From a bacterium (GTDB taxonomy: Bacteria > Patescibacteriota > Microgenomatia > Levybacterales > UBA12049): 64,000 bases of DNA. The translations under genes were made by a program, and so were the position numbers. Of this stretch, positions 9,346 to 56,835 are shown in pieces (the stretch's first letter is position 1; each line of letters opens with the position of its first letter). Location: positions 8,594 through 72,593 of the forward strand of contig JAKALS010000004.1 in NCBI GenBank assembly GCA_021813145.1. Direction: 5' to 3'. The notes beneath the pieces are model-generated. The model did not search any database. It saw only the letters and a list, made by a program, of their open reading frames with translations, and was not told the origin of the DNA.

Positions 9346-9872
9346 CAAAGACTAAAACAGGAAAAGAAATAACAATAAGATATCCGAGAAAATCCGATGC
9401 AGAAGAAATGTGGAGGTATATTAACGAACTTTCAAAAGAAAAAACTTTTGTAAGGTTTCAGGGCGAAGAAGTTTCTTTTGAAGACGAATCTAAATATCTG
9501 GAAACGATGCTTAAAAGAATAGAAGAAAAAAAGTCGGTTACACTTATGGCATTTTTCGGAGAAGAAATAATAGGAATTACCGGTATTAACATGATGGAAA
9601 AGACGGAAAAACACATTGGGGTTTTCGGAATTTCGGTTGCAAAAGATTATAGAAATGACGGTGTGGGAAAAATTCTTATGGAAAAAGTAATAGAAGAAGC
9701 AAAGAAAAACATAGAGGAATTAAAGATTATAATACTTGAGGTCTATGCCAAAAACTCCATTGCAAAAAGGGTGTACGAAGGGTTCGGCTTTAAGCAGTAT
9801 GGTCTTTTGCCGGAAGGAATAATAAGAGACGAGGGTTTTGATGACGCCCTTTTTATGTACAAAAAAATATGA
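9342..9872 (+). CDS. GNAT family N-acetyltransferase (RimJ/RimL-size)
   Basis: IGVFGISVAKDYRNDGVGKILMEKVIEEAKK acetyl-CoA binding motif (R/Q-x-x-G-x-G/A); start overlaps upstream stop (ATGA). Confidence 0.8.
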   Translation: MTKTKTGKEITIRYPRKSDAEEMWRYINELSKEKTFVRFQGEEVSFEDESKYLETMLKRIEEKKSVTLMAFFGEEIIGITGINMMEKTEKHIGVFGISVAKDYRNDGVGKILMEKVIEEAKKNIEELKIIILEVYAKNSIAKRVYEGFGFKQYGLLPEGIIRDEGFDDALFMYKKI

Positions 9873-10288
9873 ACGATAAAAATGTAAAAGTTGGAGTGGG
9901 AGTGATGGTTTTAAAAGACGGAAAAGTACTTCTTGGAAAAAGAAAAGGTTCTCACGGAGAAGGAGAATACGCATTTCCCGGTGGACATATGGAATTCGGA
10001 GAATCTTTTGAGGATTGCGCAAAAAGGGAAACTTTTGAAGAAACAGGAATAAAAATAAAAAATGTCAGATTTATTCTTTTATCGAATATAAAAATCTGGG
10101 AAGGTAAACATTATATTCACATAGGTTTATTGGCAGATTGGGAAAGCGGGGAACCGGAAGTTAAGGAAATAAATAAAGCGGAGAATTGGGATTGGTACGA
10201 GCTGGATAAATTGCCAAGCCCTTTATTTCTTCCGGTTATCCAGGAAATAGAAGCATATAAGGAAGGTAAAAATTTTATAGACTCATGA
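9869..10288 (+). CDS. NUDIX hydrolase
   Basis: Nudix box GGHMEFGESFEDCAKRETFEETGI; ATGA overlap with GNAT. Confidence 0.85.
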   Translation: MNDKNVKVGVGVMVLKDGKVLLGKRKGSHGEGEYAFPGGHMEFGESFEDCAKRETFEETGIKIKNVRFILLSNIKIWEGKHYIHIGLLADWESGEPEVKEINKAENWDWYELDKLPSPLFLPVIQEIEAYKEGKNFIDS

Positions 10289-10911
10289 GTAATAATTTTT
10301 GCACCATTTATTTGGTAAGACACGGACTTTCGGGAGCAAATGTAGCAAGAACAGTCGGAGGAAATACGGGTCTTGTTGAGAAAGGAAAAGAGCAAGCCAT
10401 GGAGTTGGGAAAGAAATTAAAAGATATAGATTTTGCCGCGGTTTTTTCTTCCGATTTGTTAAGAGCTAGACAGACAGCAGAGCTAATTATTGAAGGAAGA
10501 AATTTGGAAGTTTCAACACACAAGGAATTAAGGGAAAGAAGTTTTGGAAGCATAGATAACAAAAACGATAAAGAATTCATTCACCTTTTTCAAGCTTTAA
10601 AAGATGTATCGGATGATGAGTATTGGAAGTGGAAAATAGTAGATGATATGGAAAGCGCACAGGAAGCTTTCGGAAGATTTTTTAATGCTTTAAAGAAAAT
10701 CTCAAAAAAATATTTAGGTAAAGAAATTTTGATAGTAAGTCATGGAACGGTAATGCGTTCTTTACTGGTTTATCTGGGTTATGGAAGTTTTAAAGAACTT
10801 CCTACAAATTCTCTACAAAACACGGGTTATATAAAATTAAAAAGTGATGGCGAAAATTTCATAATTGAAGATACATGGGGTGTTAATAAAATGAAAGGAT
10901 TATCATTGTAG
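10285..10911 (+). CDS. Histidine phosphatase (phosphoglycerate-mutase-like) family protein
   Basis: IYLVRHGLSGAN (RHG catalytic motif), ...ILIVSHGTVMRSL second His motif; ATGA overlap with upstream. Confidence 0.8.
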   Translation: MSNNFCTIYLVRHGLSGANVARTVGGNTGLVEKGKEQAMELGKKLKDIDFAAVFSSDLLRARQTAELIIEGRNLEVSTHKELRERSFGSIDNKNDKEFIHLFQALKDVSDDEYWKWKIVDDMESAQEAFGRFFNALKKISKKYLGKEILIVSHGTVMRSLLVYLGYGSFKELPTNSLQNTGYIKLKSDGENFIIEDTWGVNKMKGLSL

Positions 10912-10912
10912 G

Positions 10913-11431
10913 ATGGAGCCTAAAGAATTTTATAAATTTTGTCCAAAGTGCGGAGGGGATTTGATTCCCGGAGAAGAACAGCTTCTTATTTGCGGTAAGT
11001 GTTCTTTCCGCTTTTACATTAATCCTTTGCCTTGCAATGCGGCGATCTTGGAAAACGAAAAGGGCGAAATACTTCTTGTAAAAAGAAAATACGACCCGAT
11101 GAAAGGATACTGGGATTGGCCGGGAGGTTTTATAGACCCGGGGGAAAGCCTTGAAGATTCGGTAAAAAGAGAAATAAAAGAAGAGCTAAATGTAGATATT
11201 AAAGTTATGGGGATTATCGGAGTTTATAACGACAGATATCTTTATCAAGATATTTTGCATTACTCTTTATGCGCTGCGGTATCGGCGAAAATAACTGCGG
11301 GACAATTAAAAGCCAACGATGACATAGATGGATTTGAATTTTTTAACAAAGACAAAATACTTAAACTGGATTTTGCATTTCCCTCGATTAAAAAAGGAAT
11401 AGAAGATTACTTTAAAAAGAGAAAAGTTTAG
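10913..11431 (+). CDS. NUDIX hydrolase with N-terminal C4 zinc ribbon (NudC-like architecture)
   Basis: CPKCGG...CGKCSF zinc ribbon then Nudix box GGFIDPGESLEDSVKREIKEELNV. Confidence 0.8.
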   Translation: MEPKEFYKFCPKCGGDLIPGEEQLLICGKCSFRFYINPLPCNAAILENEKGEILLVKRKYDPMKGYWDWPGGFIDPGESLEDSVKREIKEELNVDIKVMGIIGVYNDRYLYQDILHYSLCAAVSAKITAGQLKANDDIDGFEFFNKDKILKLDFAFPSIKKGIEDYFKKRKV

Positions 11432-13665
11432 GCTTTTTCGAAAATTACGTTTGAAGAATCTATGGGTACTGCTTGAGGCTCTTTGATTTTCTCATCCGGT
11501 TTTTTCTCGTGTATTTTTTCTTCCTTTTTGTTTTTTGAATACCTTTGTGCGGAAACTTTAATAACTTTTTCCCTGTTTTGGGTTTTTGATTGTGGCAAAG
11601 GTAGGGTTTGGGCAAGAAAAGGTGCCGTTGTTATAGAATCTATGGAGAGTTTTGTTAATATCTGGTAGTTCCCCAAAGCCAAAAGGTCATCTTCTTTAAA
11701 TCTTTCCCCGAATTCTTTTGCAAGATAGTAAGTGTCCTGCGCTCCGACTACGAAAGACAAAAGGGTTCCGATATTTCCGAATATTGCTGACCTTACATCA
11801 TCGGGTATTTGCGCCATATATTGGTTTGCCAAAATTAAATTAAGCCTGTATTTTCTTGCCTCGGACAATATTTTTATAAACGAACCCGTTGCAAAATTTT
11901 GGAACTCGTCTACATAAAGATAAAAATCTTTTCTTTGGGCTTCGGGTATATCGACTCTTTTCATTGCCGCAAGCTGTATTTTTGTAATTATCATCGCTCC
12001 CAAAAGAGATGAGTTATCTTCTCCGAGTTTTCCCTGCGACAGGTTAAGAATTAGAATTTTTCCTTCGTTCATTATCTTTTCAAGGTCTATTGTTGATTTG
12101 GGGTGACCTATTATATTTCTTACAGTCGGAGAGGAAACAAACTGCCCGACTTTATTAAGGATGGGAGATATGGACTCGCTGTAAAGCTTGGGAGGCATTT
12201 TTTCAAACTCATTTTGCCAGTAGCTTTTAAGGACAGGATCCTTAAGGTCTTTTACTATTTTATCCCTGAAACTTTTATCCGTTAGAAGTGGGTGTACATC
12301 CATAAATGTTGAATCCGGTTTTTCCAAAAGGGTAAGGACTGTATTTCTTAAAATGTATTCGAGTCTGGGTCCCCATGATGTTCCGTAGAGTTTCTTGAAT
12401 ATTGAAACTATTCCCGATGCAATCAACTCTTTTTGCGTTGTCCCTGCTTCCAGAGGATTTAAATGGAAAGAGCTGTCCGGGTCGGAGGGATTAAGGTAAA
12501 TTATGTCGTTAATTCTGTAAGAAGGAATATAGTCTAAGATAAGAGAAGTCAAATCTCCGTGCGGGTCTATAACGGCAAGGCCTTCGTTATTTCGCATATC
12601 GTTTATAAGCATATTTGCGATAAGAGTTGATTTTCCCGCTCCCGTTTTTCCCACAATATACTGATGTTTCCTTCTGTCATTTCTTTTTATACCGAAATTT
12701 GTAATTTTGTTTTTAAATTCCGTGTTTGCAAAAAAATTAATCTCCTTTTTCTCTTCTTGCGAAAGGTTTGCGGCAATAGGTAGATTTTCCGGCGGCTCGG
12801 AAAGGATTGTTTTTGTCCAGGAGAGATTATGGATTTTAGAAAGCTGTTCGGTAGGAAGATGATAAAGGGTTGCTATTTCCGACACATTTAAAATTTCGCT
12901 TGCCGGAATAAATGCTTTTGTCCTTTCCATTATTGCCCTGTGCAGTCTTTTTCTTTGCCAAAGTACGGGTCTTCTTAAAAAGAGGCTGTTTCCGGAAGGG
13001 TTTGAAAAAATAGAGAAGCCGTTGGTTATCTGGAAAAAATCCGAGTTGTTTGCCGTTTTTGCAAGAATTCTTATTCCCGTCTTAAAACCGTTTTTGCCGA
13101 TTTTTTCAGTAATAAATTTTGAATAAGGATTGGCGCCTTCTCCCGGTTCTTTCTGAAGGCTTTTTTGTCCTCTTGACTGCCACGACTGTGAAACGGGAAG
13201 AAGCAGGTATTGGATAACGACGGCGTTATCTTTATCCATTTTGGAAAGAAGGCTTAAAAGCGAAGAGAGGGGGTCTACTTCTTTATAATCTCTATAATTT
13301 TTTAATGGGTAAATAAAAGAAGATCGTAGTTTTAATCTTCCTTCGTGAATAACTCCCTTTCCTTCTAAAAGTGCAGGCAAATAATCTTTTACCTCGTTTA
13401 TAAGTGCTTTGGGATACTGAGCGCTGAGTTGTCCGATAACGAATGTTTGGTAGGCTTTTGGAACGACCAGGAAAAAATGTATCTGCTGGTCAAAAACCGC
13501 TATTTCCAAACTTATGGGAATACCCTTTTTGTAGACATATAAAATGGAACGCCTCAAGTTGGTTAAGCTGGCCAGAAACTGTTCCATGGCCTCGGGCGTT
13601 TCTTCGGATTTTCTCGGGGTTTTTATCTCAAGGACCGTTTTTTTGTCCATATTTAGCTTATGCAA
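11428..13665 (-). CDS. FtsK/HerA/TraG-VirD4-superfamily P-loop ATPase (type IV coupling-protein-like), 745 aa
   Basis: Walker A GKTGAGKST followed by VIDPHGD, Walker B LYVDEFQNF; no obvious N-terminal TM segments; convergent with the 5-gene cassette. Confidence 0.55.
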   Translation of the reverse strand: MHKLNMDKKTVLEIKTPRKSEETPEAMEQFLASLTNLRRSILYVYKKGIPISLEIAVFDQQIHFFLVVPKAYQTFVIGQLSAQYPKALINEVKDYLPALLEGKGVIHEGRLKLRSSFIYPLKNYRDYKEVDPLSSLLSLLSKMDKDNAVVIQYLLLPVSQSWQSRGQKSLQKEPGEGANPYSKFITEKIGKNGFKTGIRILAKTANNSDFFQITNGFSIFSNPSGNSLFLRRPVLWQRKRLHRAIMERTKAFIPASEILNVSEIATLYHLPTEQLSKIHNLSWTKTILSEPPENLPIAANLSQEEKKEINFFANTEFKNKITNFGIKRNDRRKHQYIVGKTGAGKSTLIANMLINDMRNNEGLAVIDPHGDLTSLILDYIPSYRINDIIYLNPSDPDSSFHLNPLEAGTTQKELIASGIVSIFKKLYGTSWGPRLEYILRNTVLTLLEKPDSTFMDVHPLLTDKSFRDKIVKDLKDPVLKSYWQNEFEKMPPKLYSESISPILNKVGQFVSSPTVRNIIGHPKSTIDLEKIMNEGKILILNLSQGKLGEDNSSLLGAMIITKIQLAAMKRVDIPEAQRKDFYLYVDEFQNFATGSFIKILSEARKYRLNLILANQYMAQIPDDVRSAIFGNIGTLLSFVVGAQDTYYLAKEFGERFKEDDLLALGNYQILTKLSIDSITTAPFLAQTLPLPQSKTQNREKVIKVSAQRYSKNKKEEKIHEKKPDEKIKEPQAVPIDSSNVIFEKA

Positions 13666-33398: not shown

Positions 33399-33740
33399 TC
33401 AGCCATCAATTTCCAGGTATTCTTTTATTGCAACTGCGTTGTTGTGCTCTACGTTTTTTGCTCCGAAGACCAAAGTAACTGTCCCTTTATGTTTTTTGAT
33501 TTCTTCAATCAAGTCTTTTTTTGTTTCTAATTCTTTAAAATATTTTTTTCTAAAGTCGGACCATTTTTCATCTTCGTGATTAAACCATTCACGAAGTTCG
33601 TTAGAAGGACCTATATCTTTTAGCCATAAGTCTATTTTTGCTTCTTCTTTTGAAATCCCTCTTGGCCAAAGCCTGTCTACAAGAATTCTTGTTCCGTCGT
33701 CTTTCGAAGCTTTTTCATAAACTCTTTTAAGGAAAATCAT
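33399..33740 (-). CDS. DUF488 (YeaO-like) family protein
   Basis: 113 aa; RVYE...[14 protein letters not shown]...[15 protein letters not shown] pattern characteristic of DUF488. Confidence 0.6.
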
Positions 33741-33794: not shown

Positions 33795-34337
33795 TTAAAG
33801 AAGTTTTTTTTCAATCATTTTTTTGCCCCAAGGGGAAAGGTTTTCAAAGATTCTGGATTTTTTGTTATAAAGTTCTTCTTTTGTTGCAAGGGAATATCCG
33901 TAGGCAAAATCAAGATTTGGTTTTGGAAATTTATTTATCTCTACTATTAAAATATCGCAGTATTCGTGTTCGGTATAAATGCTTTTTGGATCTCTCGATT
34001 TGTAATAGACATATCCCAAGTTTTTTATTTCCCCCCTTAAATCCTCTTCCTTAATATTCCATTCTCTTTTTAAAGAATTGATAACCGCTTCGTTAAGGTT
34101 TTCAAAATCTCCCCTTTTTTGCAGCTGATGGGAAGCAGAGCTTAAATCCAATACCGCGTCGAATGCGGGATGTCGTCTGTGCTGTAAAAGATAATAATTT
34201 TTATAAACAAGAATAACCCCGAAACCTCTATGAAGAACTCCTTTTTTGTGGGCTTCCCATTTTTCTATAAATCCCAGATGTTTCCCCTTTTTATCGACTT
34301 TTTCTATATATTGTTTTTCATCGTAATAGTTTTTCAT
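33795..34337 (-). CDS. Isopentenyl-diphosphate isomerase type 1-like NUDIX-fold protein (His metal ligands present, catalytic Cys position is Ala)
   Basis: 181 aa from internal ATG (MKNYY); alignment by eye to E. coli Idi: H..H and S.SH conserved but NSVCGHP -> SSASHQ; TATAAT box lies inside the longer tracked ORF. Confidence 0.5.
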   Translation of the reverse strand: MKNYYDEKQYIEKVDKKGKHLGFIEKWEAHKKGVLHRGFGVILVYKNYYLLQHRRHPAFDAVLDLSSASHQLQKRGDFENLNEAVINSLKREWNIKEEDLRGEIKNLGYVYYKSRDPKSIYTEHEYCDILIVEINKFPKPNLDFAYGYSLATKEELYNKKSRIFENLSPWGKKMIEKKLL

Positions 34338-34420
34338 AGGTTTGCCCTGAGCCTGGAAATGTATTATAATCCAACGGTTGATAAAATAACAATTCCTCAT
34401 CAACGGGCTGGATAAAAATT

Positions 34421-35194
34421 ATGAAGGAAATTTTTCTGGTAAAACTTGGGGGTTCGGTAATTACGGATAAAAAGACTCCTTATAACGCGAATAAGGACAC
34501 TATAAGGCGTTTGGCAAAAGAAATTCTCCAAAGTAAAAAAAATGTTGTTATTGCCCATGGCAGCGGCAGCTTCGGCCATCCTTCTGCCGTTAAATACGGA
34601 GGTAAAAAAGGTTATAAGAGTAAATTAGGGCTTGCAAAAGTTGCCAGAGACGCAATGGAGATAAACAGGATTGTAATGGAGATTCTGGTAGAAGAGGGTT
34701 TGCCCGCTGTTTCTTTCCGGCCCATGAGTATGGTTTTCTCCGAAAAAGGAAAGACAAAAGAAAATTTTTTCCAAGTTATAAAAGCTGCGGTTTCACAGGG
34801 GTTTATTCCTGTTGTTTACGGGGATGTAATTATGGATAAAAACTGGAAAACAACAATTCATTCCGGAGAAAATACATTAAATGAAATAGGAATTTATCTT
34901 AGAAAAAACGGATTTTTGGTAAATAGGATAATACAGGCCGGAAAAACAAGCGGAGTTTACGACGGCAACGGAAAAACAATTCCCCAGATTTCTAAAAATA
35001 CCTGGCCTAAATTTAAAAAATTTGTAAATAAATTAAAAGTAAAAGACGTAACGGGAGGAATGCTTCATAAAATTGAAGAATCTCTGCAAATGACAGAATT
35101 TGGAATTACAACAATCCTTGTTAACGGAGAAACAAAAAAGGAATTATTAAAAGCTCTTGCAGGCAAAAAGGTTGAAGGAACCTTAATTAAATAA
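34421..35194 (+). CDS. Isopentenyl phosphate kinase (amino-acid-kinase fold)
   Basis: LVKLGGSVITDK ... VIAHGSGSFGHP motifs characteristic of IPK. Confidence 0.75.
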   Translation: MKEIFLVKLGGSVITDKKTPYNANKDTIRRLAKEILQSKKNVVIAHGSGSFGHPSAVKYGGKKGYKSKLGLAKVARDAMEINRIVMEILVEEGLPAVSFRPMSMVFSEKGKTKENFFQVIKAAVSQGFIPVVYGDVIMDKNWKTTIHSGENTLNEIGIYLRKNGFLVNRIIQAGKTSGVYDGNGKTIPQISKNTWPKFKKFVNKLKVKDVTGGMLHKIEESLQMTEFGITTILVNGETKKELLKALAGKKVEGTLIK

Positions 35195-35853
35195 TGGCAG
35201 TAGAAAGAATCGGAGATTCTCTTAGGGAAGAGTCAGGAATTGAACGGGAAGTCGTTCAAAGCGCCGGAGTGGCGCTTTTAATAGTAGGTTTTGATCCTTT
35301 AAAAAACGGAGATAATATAACGGATCCCCTTATCTGGACAATAACCGAACTTCAGGATAAACCCGAAACACAAAAAAGGGCAGGAGACACTTCTATTCCA
35401 TCAGAAACAAGAAAACAAAATGAAACAAGAACACAGAATATTTTGGGAGCTTTGGCTGAATTTTGTGATGAAGGCTGCGTAGGCGGATTAAGCAGACATT
35501 TATTTTTTGCCCCCGGTTCTTATAAGGATGAAGCAATTTCTATAAACGGCAATCTTGTAGATATCGGCGTTTTGGTTTACGACGGTCCTTTAGATGTTTT
35601 TTTTAATCCCCAAAACTGCGAGGAGGTCTCGGGAAACGGATGGCAAAAAAGAAGCGTTATCGAGCAAGGAGAAAATATAAGAAGTGTTTTAAGGCTTGCG
35701 CTGGAGGAGGATAAAAAAGAGGGTTTAACAAGAAAGGCACTCGAGACGTACTATGCAAATTCCGGGATACAAATAGTCCCGGAAGGTTTTTCTATAAGAA
35801 ATTATTACCAAGCAAGAGAAAGCCGAAAGGACCTTACCCTTAAAAAAGGTTAA
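35194..35853 (+). CDS. Hypothetical protein (219 aa) translationally coupled to IPK (TAATG)
   Basis: ORF only; no recognisable motif; operon context with isoprenoid genes. Confidence 0.5.
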   Translation: MAVERIGDSLREESGIEREVVQSAGVALLIVGFDPLKNGDNITDPLIWTITELQDKPETQKRAGDTSIPSETRKQNETRTQNILGALAEFCDEGCVGGLSRHLFFAPGSYKDEAISINGNLVDIGVLVYDGPLDVFFNPQNCEEVSGNGWQKRSVIEQGENIRSVLRLALEEDKKEGLTRKALETYYANSGIQIVPEGFSIRNYYQARESRKDLTLKKG

Positions 35854-36914
35854 TTCTGTCTTATCCTCATTGATTCTATGAGTATTAAACAAATTTCCTT
35901 GCATTCTTCCGGCAGAAGAGAATTTTCTATTATTTTTTTTGCTTCATTTAAATTTTTAAGAATTTCCAGTTTTCCTTCTTCTATAGCTCTTGATTTCTCA
36001 AAAATTTCTATAACTTCTTTCTGCTCATTATCTTTTAATTCTTTTCCGAAATATTTTAATAATTTTTCTTTTTGTTGTTTTGTTCCTTTTTCAAAAACAT
36101 AATCCGTAAAAAAAGTATGCTGGTGTTCGGCAATATCCCTTAGAGTATTTTTCTCCAATATTTTAGGGTCTCCTACAATATCCAGCAAATCGTCCTGCAT
36201 TTGGAAAGCAATTCCTAGCCTAGTCCCCAGCTCTTCGCAAAAAGCGTCCATATTGCTGTTGGGGTTTGCTAGATGGGCTCCTATTTGCATGGGCCTGACA
36301 AAGGTGTAGCGGGAAGTTTTAAGCCTTGTTTTATCCTCAATTAAGTTTTTCTTTGCCTTTTTTCTTGTTGCTATATCTATATCCAGAATCTGGCCGAAAC
36401 ATAATTCGTCCACCATTTTGTAAAAATAATTTTGGCTGCTGTTGAGATTTTCCTTTGGAAAATTTTTGTTTCCCAGGAAAAGTTCCATTGCCCAGGAAAA
36501 AAAGAGGTCTCCCATCAGTATCCCCTGGGCGTTTGAGGCGTTTTCCAGATCTCCCGTTCTTTTTTCTTCCTTAAGCCTTTTTAAAACAAAAGCGGGAATT
36601 GTATCCACGCCGTGTCTTTTGTATTGTTTATCCATTATGTCGTCGTGGATCAATGCAAAGTTATGAAATATTTCCAAAGAAACAAAAAGTTTTAATGCGT
36701 TTTGTATATCTTTTCCTCCGTTTGCCGTGTACATTACATAGGCAATGTACGGCCTTATCCTTTTTCCTCCGGCCATTGTTAATTTTTCCGAGTATTCTAT
36801 AAAATCTTTTATGAAATTATCTGAAGAATTAGACGAAAACTTCTTAAGCCTTTGTTCGAGAAAATTTTTTAGTATGGGGTCGAAGACCTGCTTAAATTCC
36901 TGTAGGTTATACAT
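35850..36914 (-). CDS. Polyprenyl (geranylgeranyl/farnesyl) diphosphate synthase; start moved to ATG 36914 because tracked start 37001 runs through tRNA-Pro
   Basis: FARM FALIHDDIMD and SARM MQDDLLD motifs. Confidence 0.85.
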   Translation of the reverse strand: MYNLQEFKQVFDPILKNFLEQRLKKFSSNSSDNFIKDFIEYSEKLTMAGGKRIRPYIAYVMYTANGGKDIQNALKLFVSLEIFHNFALIHDDIMDKQYKRHGVDTIPAFVLKRLKEEKRTGDLENASNAQGILMGDLFFSWAMELFLGNKNFPKENLNSSQNYFYKMVDELCFGQILDIDIATRKKAKKNLIEDKTRLKTSRYTFVRPMQIGAHLANPNSNMDAFCEELGTRLGIAFQMQDDLLDIVGDPKILEKNTLRDIAEHQHTFFTDYVFEKGTKQQKEKLLKYFGKELKDNEQKEVIEIFEKSRAIEEGKLEILKNLNEAKKIIENSLLPEECKEICLILIESMRIRQN

Positions 36915-36920
36915 AAAAAG

Positions 36921-36991
36921 TCGGGGTGCCGAGAATTGAACTCGGCCCACACGCACCCCATGCGCGCATTCTACCGATAAACTACACCCCG
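36921..36991 (-). tRNA. tRNA-Pro (anticodon GGG)
   Basis: Hand-folded cloverleaf: 7-bp acceptor CGGGGUG/CACCCCG with C1-G72 and A73 (bacterial Pro identity), anticodon loop AUGGGGU, T-arm CCGAG-UUCAAUU-CUCGG. Confidence 0.8.
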
Positions 36992-37086
36992 TTTGTGCCA
37001 TTGAATTATATCAAAAAAAGTCCAGGCATGGTACAGTTTGACCTATTGTATTTTGTTAGAGTTTTGTTCTACAATATTTCAGAAAT

Positions 37087-55323: not shown

Positions 55324-56835
55324 ATGTTCTGGGCAGATAAAGTAGCGGAAGAAGTTATAAAATCCGGCAAATACAAACCTTATTGGGTGGATGACATGAA
55401 AACTCCCTCGGGTTTTTCCCATGTAGGCTCAATGATGGGTCCTGTCGTTCACAGTATGGTCTATAGGGCTCTAAAAGACGTGGGCAAAGAAGATACTTTT
55501 ACTTTTGTTATCAACGATTTTGATCCGGCTGACGATTTGTTACCCGAAGTCCGGGGGAAATACGAGAAGTATTTGGGGATGCCTTTAAAGCTTTTTCCTT
55601 CTCCCGACCCTTCTTTTCAAAGTATGGGAGATATGTTTGCCGCAGATTTTGTAGGTTCAATTAGAAATTTGGGAGTAGAGGCAGAGATGCTTTCTTCCTG
55701 GGAGCTTTACCATCAGGGAAAATTTGACGAAGTTATAAGGCTTGCCTTGGATAACGCAGAAAAAATCCAAGATATTTACCAGAAAGTAAGCGGCAGCAGG
55801 AAAAAAGAAGCCGGGTGGCTCCCTTTTCAGGTAATTTGTGAAAATTGCCAAAAACTCGGGACAACAAGAGTTTTTGCCTGGGACGGGGAAAAAGTTTCAT
55901 ATAAGTGTGAGTCTAATCTTGTTAAATGGGCTGTGGGTTGCGGATACGAAGGAAAAATTTCTCCATTCGGCGGAACCGGAAAACTGCCCTGGAAAGTTGA
56001 CTGGGCAGCACACTGGAAAGTAATAGGGGTAACAATAGAAGGCGCGGGCAAAGACCATGCCTCAAAAGGCGGTTCATACGATATAGCAATGACAATATGC
56101 GAAGAAGTTTTTAAATATCCCCATCCTTTTAAGCTTCCCTACGAATTCGTCTTAATCGGTGGCAAAAAAATGTCTTCTTCCAAAGGCCTTGGTCTGAAGG
56201 CCCACGACCTTGTTGAGATTCTTCCTCCGCAACTGGGGCGTTTTCTTTTTGCAAGAAACGGTATAAGGTCGCAGACAAATTTTGACCCTGTTGGCACGGA
56301 TGCTATTCCCCTTCTTTTTGACGATTATCAAAAAGCGGCAGATGCTTATTTTGATAAAGGGGACGAAGATTCGGCCAGAGCTTTCGAACTTTCACAAATA
56401 GGAAAAATCCAAAAACCTCCGTCTGTAAGGTTTTCGGTTTTGGCTCAATGGATACAGATGCCAAATATGGAGGAGGAAATTAAAAAAAAGGGACTTGAGG
56501 AGTGGGCAAAATATGCAAGAATATGGGTCGAAAGATTTGCTCCGGATAAAGACAGGTTTACCGTACAAAAAGAGCTGCCGATTAGCGCAAGGGAACTTTC
56601 CCAAAAACAAAAAGAGTTTTTAAGAAATATTGCAAAAGAGCTGGATAAAAAATGGGAGGGAGAAGAATTCCAAACCAGAATTTATGATATCGGAAAAGAA
56701 TTGGGCTTGGGAGGAAAAGACGCTTTTAAAGCGATCTATTTATCTTTAATCGGAAAAGACCACGGTCCAAAAGCGGCATGGTTAATTCTTTCTTTGGATA
56801 AAAACTTTGTAGAAAAAAGATTTAATGAGGTTTAA
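55324..56835 (+). CDS. lysK: Lysyl-tRNA synthetase, class I (archaeal-type)
   Basis: PSGFSHVGS (HIGH-like), KMSSSKG (KMSKS), Cys cluster CENC...CES; 503 aa. Confidence 0.8.
   Translation: MFWADKVAEEVIKSGKYKPYWVDDMKTPSGFSHVGSMMGPVVHSMVYRALKDVGKEDTFTFVINDFDPADDLLPEVRGKYEKYLGMPLKLFPSPDPSFQSMGDMFAADFVGSIRNLGVEAEMLSSWELYHQGKFDEVIRLALDNAEKIQDIYQKVSGSRKKEAGWLPFQVICENCQKLGTTRVFAWDGEKVSYKCESNLVKWAVGCGYEGKISPFGGTGKLPWKVDWAAHWKVIGVTIEGAGKDHASKGGSYDIAMTICEEVFKYPHPFKLPYEFVLIGGKKMSSSKGLGLKAHDLVEILPPQLGRFLFARNGIRSQTNFDPVGTDAIPLLFDDYQKAADAYFDKGDEDSARAFELSQIGKIQKPPSVRFSVLAQWIQMPNMEEEIKKKGLEEWAKYARIWVERFAPDKDRFTVQKELPISARELSQKQKEFLRNIAKELDKKWEGEEFQTRIYDIGKELGLGGKDAFKAIYLSLIGKDHGPKAAWLILSLDKNFVEKRFNEV

Follow-up and report, generated by a model that had tools for sequence, protein, structure and literature searches.

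Background

This report concerns a protein, here called X, encoded by the 219-amino-acid open reading frame (ORF) that lies between the gene for isopentenyl phosphate kinase (IPK) and that for a trans-prenyl synthase in a 64-kb stretch of a Patescibacteria contig (GenBank JAKALS010000004.1, positions 8,594 to 72,593), referred to below as the window. Hoshino & Gaucher (2018; PMC6107057) describe an archaeal-type IPK in bacteria of the Candidate Phyla Radiation (CPR), mainly Microgenomates, the presence of which is apparently independent of other genes of the mevalonate (MVA) pathway. There the kinase gene usually shows synteny with the type I isopentenyl diphosphate isomerase gene (IDI-I), even in genomes missing most MVA genes, both the MVA genes and the kinase gene associate with isoprenyl diphosphate synthase genes, and the role of the kinase is called 'enigmatic'. 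The window comes from the same Microgenomates-type CPR lineage and has the same flanking genes, and the IDI/IPK/prenyl-synthase module itself has therefore been in print since 2018. No mention was found, in the accessible part of that paper, of the gene between IPK and the prenyl synthase, of the Nudix fold or the breadth of the X family, of a fusion to IspH, or of an IDI variant without its Cys.

A second system for comparison comes from plants, where IPK and Nudix hydrolases jointly set the levels of isopentenyl phosphate (IP) and isopentenyl diphosphate (IPP), as stated in PMC8248349, which cites Henry et al. 2015 and 2018. The plant pair, with AtNUDX1/3 as the Nudix partner, shares with the IPK-X pair the combination of IPK with a Nudix-fold protein in a terpenoid-precursor context, where the balance of monophosphate and diphosphate is set. 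X differs in being without the REUXEE part of the hydrolase box, in having no detectable sequence relationship to the plant proteins and in belonging to an operon in which its translation is coupled to that of IPK. In plants the Nudix partners are hydrolases with a canonical box, and there is no genetic linkage between them and IPK. Hydrolysis of IPP and dimethylallyl diphosphate (DMAPP) by Nudix enzymes is also known from bacteria (PMC6058358). No Nudix-IPK pair in the CPR was found in our literature searches.

The observations presented here make it very probable that X has a Nudix fold and that its function is tied to the metabolism of C5 isoprenoid phosphates. Three points appear to be new, namely that the gene between IPK and the synthase represents a broad, unannotated Nudix family with an altered box, that its pairing with IPK persists across deep divergence, and that it has been fused to IspH.

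Organization of the locus

The features of the locus, in positions of the window, are as follows.

33795..34337, minus strand: IDI-1-derived gene of the Nudix clan, 180 aa, catalytic Cys lost
34338..34420: divergent intergenic gap between the IDI-like gene and IPK, 83 bp
34421..35194, plus strand: IPK, 257 aa
35194..35853, plus strand: X, divergent protein of predicted Nudix fold, 219 aa, Nudix box altered, helical extension at the C-terminus
35850..36914, minus strand: short-chain trans-isoprenyl diphosphate synthase, 354 aa, PF00348
36920..36991, minus strand: tRNA-Pro(GGG), located with ARAGORN, at the module boundary

A preliminary description of this DNA had listed the four protein-coding genes, and all are real, with the order and coordinates that it gave. 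It had also reported that IPK and X overlap in TAATG, and this sequence is found at 35192-35196, where the IPK stop codon and the X start codon share a base. X and the trans-prenyl synthase are convergent and their stop codons overlap as well (TTAA, 35850-35853). The gap at 34338-34420 contains the two best σ70-like matches of the scanned region, 10/12 each and one on each strand; the total number of promoter-like sites in the scanned region is not above the shuffle expectation, and as promoters these two matches are only suggestive.

The identity of the kinase is clear. Its score against the NCBIfam equivalog IPPK_Arch is 195 bits, against a cutoff of 120, in a full-length match (residues 6-256), and it also matches PF00696 (E 4.6e-22) and the crystallised IPKs 7lnt, 3ll9 and 3k4o (E 1e-35 to 1e-25, with 7lnt at 2.6e-35). 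The motif 'HGSGSFGH' is visible in the sequence. The nearest named relatives of this IPK are from Candidatus Levybacteria (Microgenomates group, Patescibacteria).

The window otherwise contains ribosomal-protein operons and housekeeping genes. According to the annotation available in precomputed form for the identical public contig, the ORF map, and Pfam scans of the unnamed ORFs, it holds no genes of the MVA or methylerythritol phosphate (MEP) pathways and no UbiD or UbiX, which bears out, over the full 64 kb, what had been said of the mevalonate, UbiD and UbiX genes. Likewise, there are no MVA genes within ±10 kb of X in eight relatives. Neither route of the alternative (archaeal/IPK-dependent) mevalonate pathway, whether mevalonate kinase with phosphomevalonate decarboxylase or the dehydratase with a UbiD-type decarboxylase and UbiX, is represented in the window or in those flanking regions of the eight relatives.

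Fold and conserved residues of X

X had been described as an unknown protein, and by sequence it is one, having no match in Pfam (at E <= 0.1), NCBIfam or the PDB; by structure prediction, however, it has a Nudix fold. The family is large. While a word-indexed search with X returned 22 clusters, none of them named, an exhaustive profile search identified 171 representatives at 50% identity, 123 of these with E < 1e-10. The AlphaFold (AF2) model of X built on the family alignment has a pLDDT of 85 and a pTM of 0.82, and all of the top 50 Foldseek matches to this model in the PDB are Nudix proteins (E 1e-4 to 2e-3, target-normalised TM up to 0.59), among them Dcp2, DR1025, NUDT15, RppH, ADP-ribase and NrtR. 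A second AF2 model, of a fusion-type member of the family, again matches Nudix proteins only. The model of X has the α/β/α fold of about 130 residues that is typical of the clan, with a loop-helix-loop at the box, the helix at 79-89 being in the Nudix-box position. At the sequence level, PF00293 is reached weakly by 3 of 102 family members (best E 2.9e-4), and the family profile matches just two sequences in the PDB, both of them Nudix hydrolases (E 0.14 and 0.19). Based on the fold matches together with these PF00293 and PDB profile matches, X is predicted to be a Nudix-clan domain with a helical C-terminal extension. Its N-terminus is disordered and it has no predicted membrane segment or amphipathic anchor.

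The published Nudix box is GX5EX7REUXEEXGU (PMC5389931). In X the consensus at this position is E71-x5-E77-x7-G85-A86-L87-x-E89-F90-x-D-D, in which the first Glu of the box and the first Glu of the 'EE' are all that is kept of the pyrophosphohydrolase box. When 102 of the 171 representatives were aligned, with a mean column identity of 21%, E77 and E89 were invariant and E71, T72, K74, E144, W150, R163, R208 and D213 were at least 90% conserved. Four Glu, one Lys and two Arg are near-invariant across 102-132 divergent representatives, which suggests that these conserved residues form a working metal- and phosphate-binding site and not a decayed one. E144 and W150 align with the generic Nudix 'E-x5-W' element. 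The Glu of this element is the out-of-box catalytic Glu in ADP-ribase-type enzymes.

Judged by its box, X would belong among the altered-box proteins of the Nudix clan, such as IDI, MutY, the GDP-sugar glycosyl hydrolases and NUDT21, which have changed chemistry or are non-enzymatic (PMC5389931). NudD/Gmm (GDP-mannose mannosyl hydrolase) and NUDT21/CPSF5 resemble X in having the Nudix fold with at least two box glutamates replaced by hydrophobic residues (PMC5389931), and in NUDT21, as in X, the first Glu is all that is left of the EE pair. They differ from X in their substrates or partners (GDP-sugars; RNA and CPSF6), in the absence of an isoprenoid context, and in showing no sequence similarity to it beyond the fold. 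IDI-1 is closer in context, being an altered-box Nudix-clan protein that acts on IPP and DMAPP and is encoded in the same gene cluster as X. The box substitutions differ, with GX5EX7RRX2YEXGU in IDI and EX5EX7GAX2EFXDD in X. X was considered as a paralogue of IDI and this was rejected: the profile-profile comparison in hhalign gives a probability of 3%, there is no conserved Cys or His in X, and it has neither the metal site (His3Glu2) nor the catalytic pair (Cys/Glu) of IDI-1.

Association of X with IPK and other isoprenoid genes

The preliminary description had proposed looking at the co-occurrence of X and IPK across genomes, and the association holds. Of 38 X loci collected, 25 are distinct and have usable upstream sequence, and in 20 of these 25 an IPK gene is directly upstream of X on the same strand. 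The two genes overlap in TAATG or ATGA or are 1-3 nt apart, and all of the upstream kinases score above the IPPK_Arch equivalog cutoff (172-209 bits versus 120). When the X family was clustered at ~32% identity to define clades, the IPK-X pair was present in four clades that share less than about this identity: the clade of the window, the P0086 clade (L014/15), the P0062 clade (L033), and the P0057 clade (L036-38). In the last three, the genes around the pair are unrelated to the surroundings in the window. The presence of the pair in four clades, three of them with unrelated surroundings, means that the association is more than shared synteny, and the recurrence of the IPK-X order in 20 of the 25 distinct loci means that the arrangement of the module is no chance event. 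Among close relatives the synteny extends further, from a ribosomal protein operon through the isoprenoid module to RecA, RecX and RNase Y.

The gene downstream of X usually encodes a convergent trans-isoprenyl diphosphate synthase (trans-IPPS), a cis-prenyltransferase of the UppS type (TIGR00055, 245 bits versus a cutoff of 110), or both (L020, L022). In L033, of the P0062 clade, IPK, X and UppS follow one another in that order on one strand. An IDI-1-type gene is nearby in the X loci and a YjbQ-family gene precedes IPK in many lineages.

In six X clades there is a divergent cassette encoding an extracytoplasmic function (ECF)-type sigma factor and two small unannotated proteins (~75 and ~105 aa). 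Its place is upstream of the (YjbQ-)IPK-X operon or else immediately upstream of X. It is present in L001 (6923-9158), L005, L012, L013, L015, L030, L033 and L036, and is not in the window. Where the clade of the window has lost the ECF-sigma cassette and the YjbQ gene, the window has a DUF488 gene (33399-33740).

Two of the collected loci call for separate comment. In the lineage of L028 and L029, an in-frame stop near the beginning and a frameshift in the middle of the gene interrupt the X frame (L029:9934-10629), beside intact genes for IPK, the IDI-like protein and the prenyl synthase; X is a pseudogene here, or else the assembly is in error. L010 is a 3.3-kb contig (CAYYAC010000059.1) with the order S9, IDI-like gene, IPK, X that is labelled 'uncultured Gammaproteobacteria bacterium' and has probably been mis-binned.

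Fusions of X to other domains

In one lineage X is fused to IspH. The 531-aa protein P0086 consists of X and a full IspH/LytB domain (PF02401, LYTB, E 1e-65), and four contigs, which come from at least two independent sources, each carry this fusion in one ORF. It lies between the IPK and UppS genes (L014:3132-4727, L015:3087-4682). Since IspH makes IPP and DMAPP, the fusion is a link between X and the C5 isoprenoid diphosphates that is independent of the association with IPK.

Elsewhere in the family, X is fused to two different C-terminal domains of about 180 aa that have no family assignment, in P0033-P0036 and P0052 (e.g. L030:3137-4474) and in P0057 (L036:6603-7784). One of these domains has the conserved sequence 'RGDRLGYPELGxxWYLxF...IPVxxIKDxxLRP'. 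Neither domain has a match in Pfam, a homologue that occurs by itself in the fetched DNA, or a fold match that can be interpreted.

Possible functions of X

As to its substrate, its chemistry as a hydrolase and its role in physiology, we infer that X may be a non-canonical IPP/DMAPP phosphohydrolase acting in a cycle with IPK, to which we would give a probability of roughly 35%. X would be a fast-evolving member of the Nudix clan without the canonical REUXEE hydrolase box, in which the carboxylates E71, E77, E89 and E144 and the basic residues K74, R163 and R208 would suit the binding of Mg2+ and of phosphate or diphosphate. In the CPR/Patescibacteria it would be co-produced with IPK from overlapping or near-abutting genes, inside a compact cassette that also encodes an IDI-1-type protein and a prenyltransferase (short-chain trans-IPPS and/or UppS). 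This cassette is presumably the source of prenyl diphosphates for the carrier lipid, undecaprenyl phosphate. X would bind a C5 isoprenoid diphosphate, IPP or DMAPP and possibly hydroxymethylbutenyl diphosphate (HMBPP), and cut off the terminal phosphate, which IPK would add again. Together the two proteins would set the balance between IP and IPP, and between dimethylallyl phosphate (DMAP) and DMAPP, as a bacterial counterpart of the IPK/Nudix pair of plants.

Several points weigh against a phosphohydrolase of this kind. In X, G85, A86 and F90 stand in place of the residues that define the Nudix pyrophosphohydrolases, namely both residues of 'RE' and the second Glu of 'EE', and the clan members in which the box is altered in this way show changed chemistry or no enzymatic function (PMC5389931). 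For a minimal genome, a hydrolase and a kinase that reverse each other's action and are produced in equal amounts would be a design that wastes ATP, and there is no obvious sense in fusing an IPP hydrolase to IspH, an enzyme that makes IPP. In addition, 5 of the 25 loci have no IPK adjacent to X (L011/L027, L012, L013, L021, L026).

Some of these same points would favour X being an enzyme of C5 isoprenoid phosphates that is not a hydrolase, either an isomerase (of IPP/DMAPP or of IP/DMAP) or an enzyme that cleaves C-O rather than P-O-P bonds, which we consider rather unlikely. The canonical hydrolase residues are gone while the acidic cluster is kept, and there are parallels in other Nudix-fold enzymes whose boxes are altered, namely IDI-1 and the GDP-sugar glycosyl hydrolases, and more widely in the new chemistries of altered-box members of the clan (PMC5389931). 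The IspH fusion also fits a step at IPP/DMAPP, as the products of IspH are the substrates of IDI, and an isomerase activity might have to come from another protein in the clade of the window, where the IDI-1 derivative is without its catalytic Cys. The 3% probability in the comparison of the X and IDI profiles and the lack of conserved Cys or His residues to match the catalytic and metal residues of IDI-1 are contrary evidence. Furthermore, X is found alongside a fully canonical IDI-1 in L001, L014/15, L017, L018 and L030, where a second isomerase would be redundant.

About as unlikely is that X is a non-catalytic partner of IPK, a Nudix-derived sensor of IPP/DMAPP or of another phosphorylated metabolite that regulates or scaffolds the kinase. 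The TAATG and ATGA overlaps that are kept across clades are typical of subunits made in fixed stoichiometry, and regulators with the Nudix fold, such as NrtR, are among the structural matches of X. The retention of only the first Glu of 'EE' is shared with the non-enzymatic NUDT21 (GX5EX7RLX2EIXGR; PMC5389931). Yet four invariant or near-invariant Glu with Lys and Arg look more like the active site of a metal-dependent enzyme, the copies of X that have no adjacent IPK, in several lineages, keep all of the invariant residues, and no fusion of IPK to X is present among the 120 closest IPK clusters.

It is doubtful that X acts instead on longer chains, as a cytoplasmic prenyl-diphosphate phosphatase that would convert farnesyl diphosphate (FPP) or undecaprenyl diphosphate (UPP) to the monophosphate, in the latter case as the last step of an operon leading from IP through IPP, FPP and UPP to undecaprenyl phosphate. 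Apart from IPK, no neighbours of X are as widespread as the prenyltransferases. UppS comes immediately after X in L013, where there is no adjacent IPK, which can be set beside the IPK-X-UppS order on one strand in L033, and the divergent ECF-sigma cassette that flanks X in six clades is of the type that governs envelope stress regulons. Plant Nudix enzymes that convert prenyl diphosphates to prenyl phosphates are known (PMC8857926 and PMC7194074). Against this, X has a disordered N-terminus and nothing predicted that would anchor it in a membrane, the hydrolase-box residues have been lost, and soluble C5 substrates are indicated by the fusion partner IspH as well as by the close coupling with IPK.

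The preliminary description had put X forward as a candidate for the missing step that supplies or handles isopentenyl phosphate. The link to isoprenoids and to IPK stands, through the co-occurrence, the coupling and the IspH fusion. The supply of IP is another matter, and X is very unlikely to be an IP-forming enzyme that replaces phosphomevalonate decarboxylase or the archaeal dehydratase/decarboxylase pair. IPK does need a source of IP, there is no MVA gene near it in the window or within ±10 kb in the eight relatives, and the function of IPK in the CPR has been called enigmatic (PMC6107057). As the Nudix fold is known for diphosphate hydrolysis, isomerisation and ligand binding, it is improbable that X is a missing step of the mevalonate pathway, and probably it does not replace one. 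To our knowledge, no Nudix-fold enzyme decarboxylates or dehydrates mevalonate phosphates. Such reactions are outside the four functional classes of the Nudix clan (PMC5389931), and in one lineage X occurs with IspH, which is an enzyme of the MEP pathway. There may also be no gap to fill, given that in many Microgenomates the full set of classical MVA genes is present at other places in the genome (PMC6107057).

Finally, there is very little to recommend X as a housekeeping Nudix-like protein for nucleotide sanitation or RNA decapping that owes its position to inherited synteny: this would agree with the conserved gene order around the locus in close relatives and with Dcp2, RppH, NUDT15 and ADP-ribases being the top structural matches, but the IPK-X pair persists amid wholly different genes in L014, L033 and L036, the IspH fusion is an independent link to isoprenoids, and for housekeeping roles two canonical Nudix hydrolases are already available in the window.

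The IDI-like gene and the trans-prenyl synthase

The gene at 33795-34337 had been called IDI-like. It is derived from IDI-1, although it may not encode an isomerase. The protein scores 45 and 39 bits with the NCBIfam IDI models, which is below their curated cutoffs of 127 and 106, and it matches the structures of human IDI1/2 (E 5e-8). In alignments the metal and diphosphate residues are kept (equivalents of H, H, H, E, Y, ExE and W), and 'LSSASHQ' takes the place of 'NSCCGHP', with the catalytic Cys changed to Ala. We take this Cys to be the equivalent of E. coli C67 from an alignment with E. coli Idi, and the alignment with human IDI1 leads to the same conclusion. In the absence of the catalytic Cys, this protein may therefore not be an isomerase. 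The start is most likely the ATG at 34337, which gives 180 aa and matches the orthologues; a TTG at 34403 was also considered and is disfavoured by the orthologue length of 180 aa.

Orthologues that are likewise without the Cys are found at L003:8555-9097, L005:6892-7434, L009:8552-9094, L010:1210-1752, L021:1544-2083 and L029:8543-9085. At the orthologous position in the close relatives L001, L017, L018 and L030, and in L015 of the IspH-fusion lineage, there is a canonical IDI-1 with 'NSCCGHP'. The two forms are about 25% identical and are present in otherwise syntenic genomes.

The synthase downstream of X is a trans-isoprenyl diphosphate synthase, matching PF00348 (E 9e-45, 153 bits versus a cutoff of 27) and having both Asp-rich DDxxD motifs, as DDIMD and DDLLD. 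Its best NCBIfam matches are models of short-chain IPPS, every one of them below the equivalog cutoff, and there is a Phe at -5 from the first motif. Judging from this Phe and the best-scoring models only, the product would be short-chain, C15-C20. The coordinate of 36914 previously given for this end of the gene is correct, because the tRNA-Pro(GGG) fills 36920-36991 on the minus strand and so fixes the true start. The 383-aa ORF from 37001 is an artefact that crosses this tRNA on the same strand, and the public gene call P0027 (383 aa) carries the over-extended start at 37001.

In the synthases of the close relatives L001 (10692-11576), L003 (10697-11581) and L005 (10697-11638), about 60 residues are missing right after the second Asp-rich motif. 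This stretch is present in the copies in the window and in L009, and in the window it reads 'EKNTLRDIAEHQHT'. The usual motif at this position is presumably 'GK..G.D...GK.T'.

Other genes in the window

The two canonical-box Nudix hydrolases of the window are encoded on the plus strand at 9869-10288 and 10913-11431, on either side of a histidine phosphatase gene (10285-10911), and the second of them has a zinc-ribbon-like segment at its N-terminus. These genes (9869-11431) are within a run of small overlapping genes that includes a methyltransferase and a GNAT acetyltransferase. On the minus strand at 11428-13665 is a gene for a 745-aa TrwB/TraG-like type IV coupling ATPase, antisense between the EF-G and EF-Tu parts of the translation cluster. 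The lysyl-tRNA synthetase (55324-56835, plus strand) is of the class I type (PF01921, E 2e-88).

Significance

A large part of bacterial diversity belongs to the CPR/Patescibacteria, which need polyprenyl carrier lipids for the cell wall. Many of these organisms have no recognisable MVA or MEP pathway, and their IPK has been called enigmatic. It is conceivable, if unlikely, that X and IPK, with YjbQ in many lineages, form a minimal route for the capture or recycling of C5 phosphates that is independent of the MVA and MEP pathways and feeds IPP to FPP and UPP synthesis. The C5 phosphate for such a route would be scavenged from a host, or generated from HMBPP or IPP. If this were true, ultra-small symbionts could make their carrier lipid without a full precursor pathway, which would explain the orphan IPK of the CPR. 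As a family of 171 representatives that is coupled to IPK and in one case fused to IspH, X is the most obvious candidate to clarify what this kinase is for. It would also add to the Nudix clan another lineage with an altered box, and such lineages have repeatedly been found to have new chemistry.

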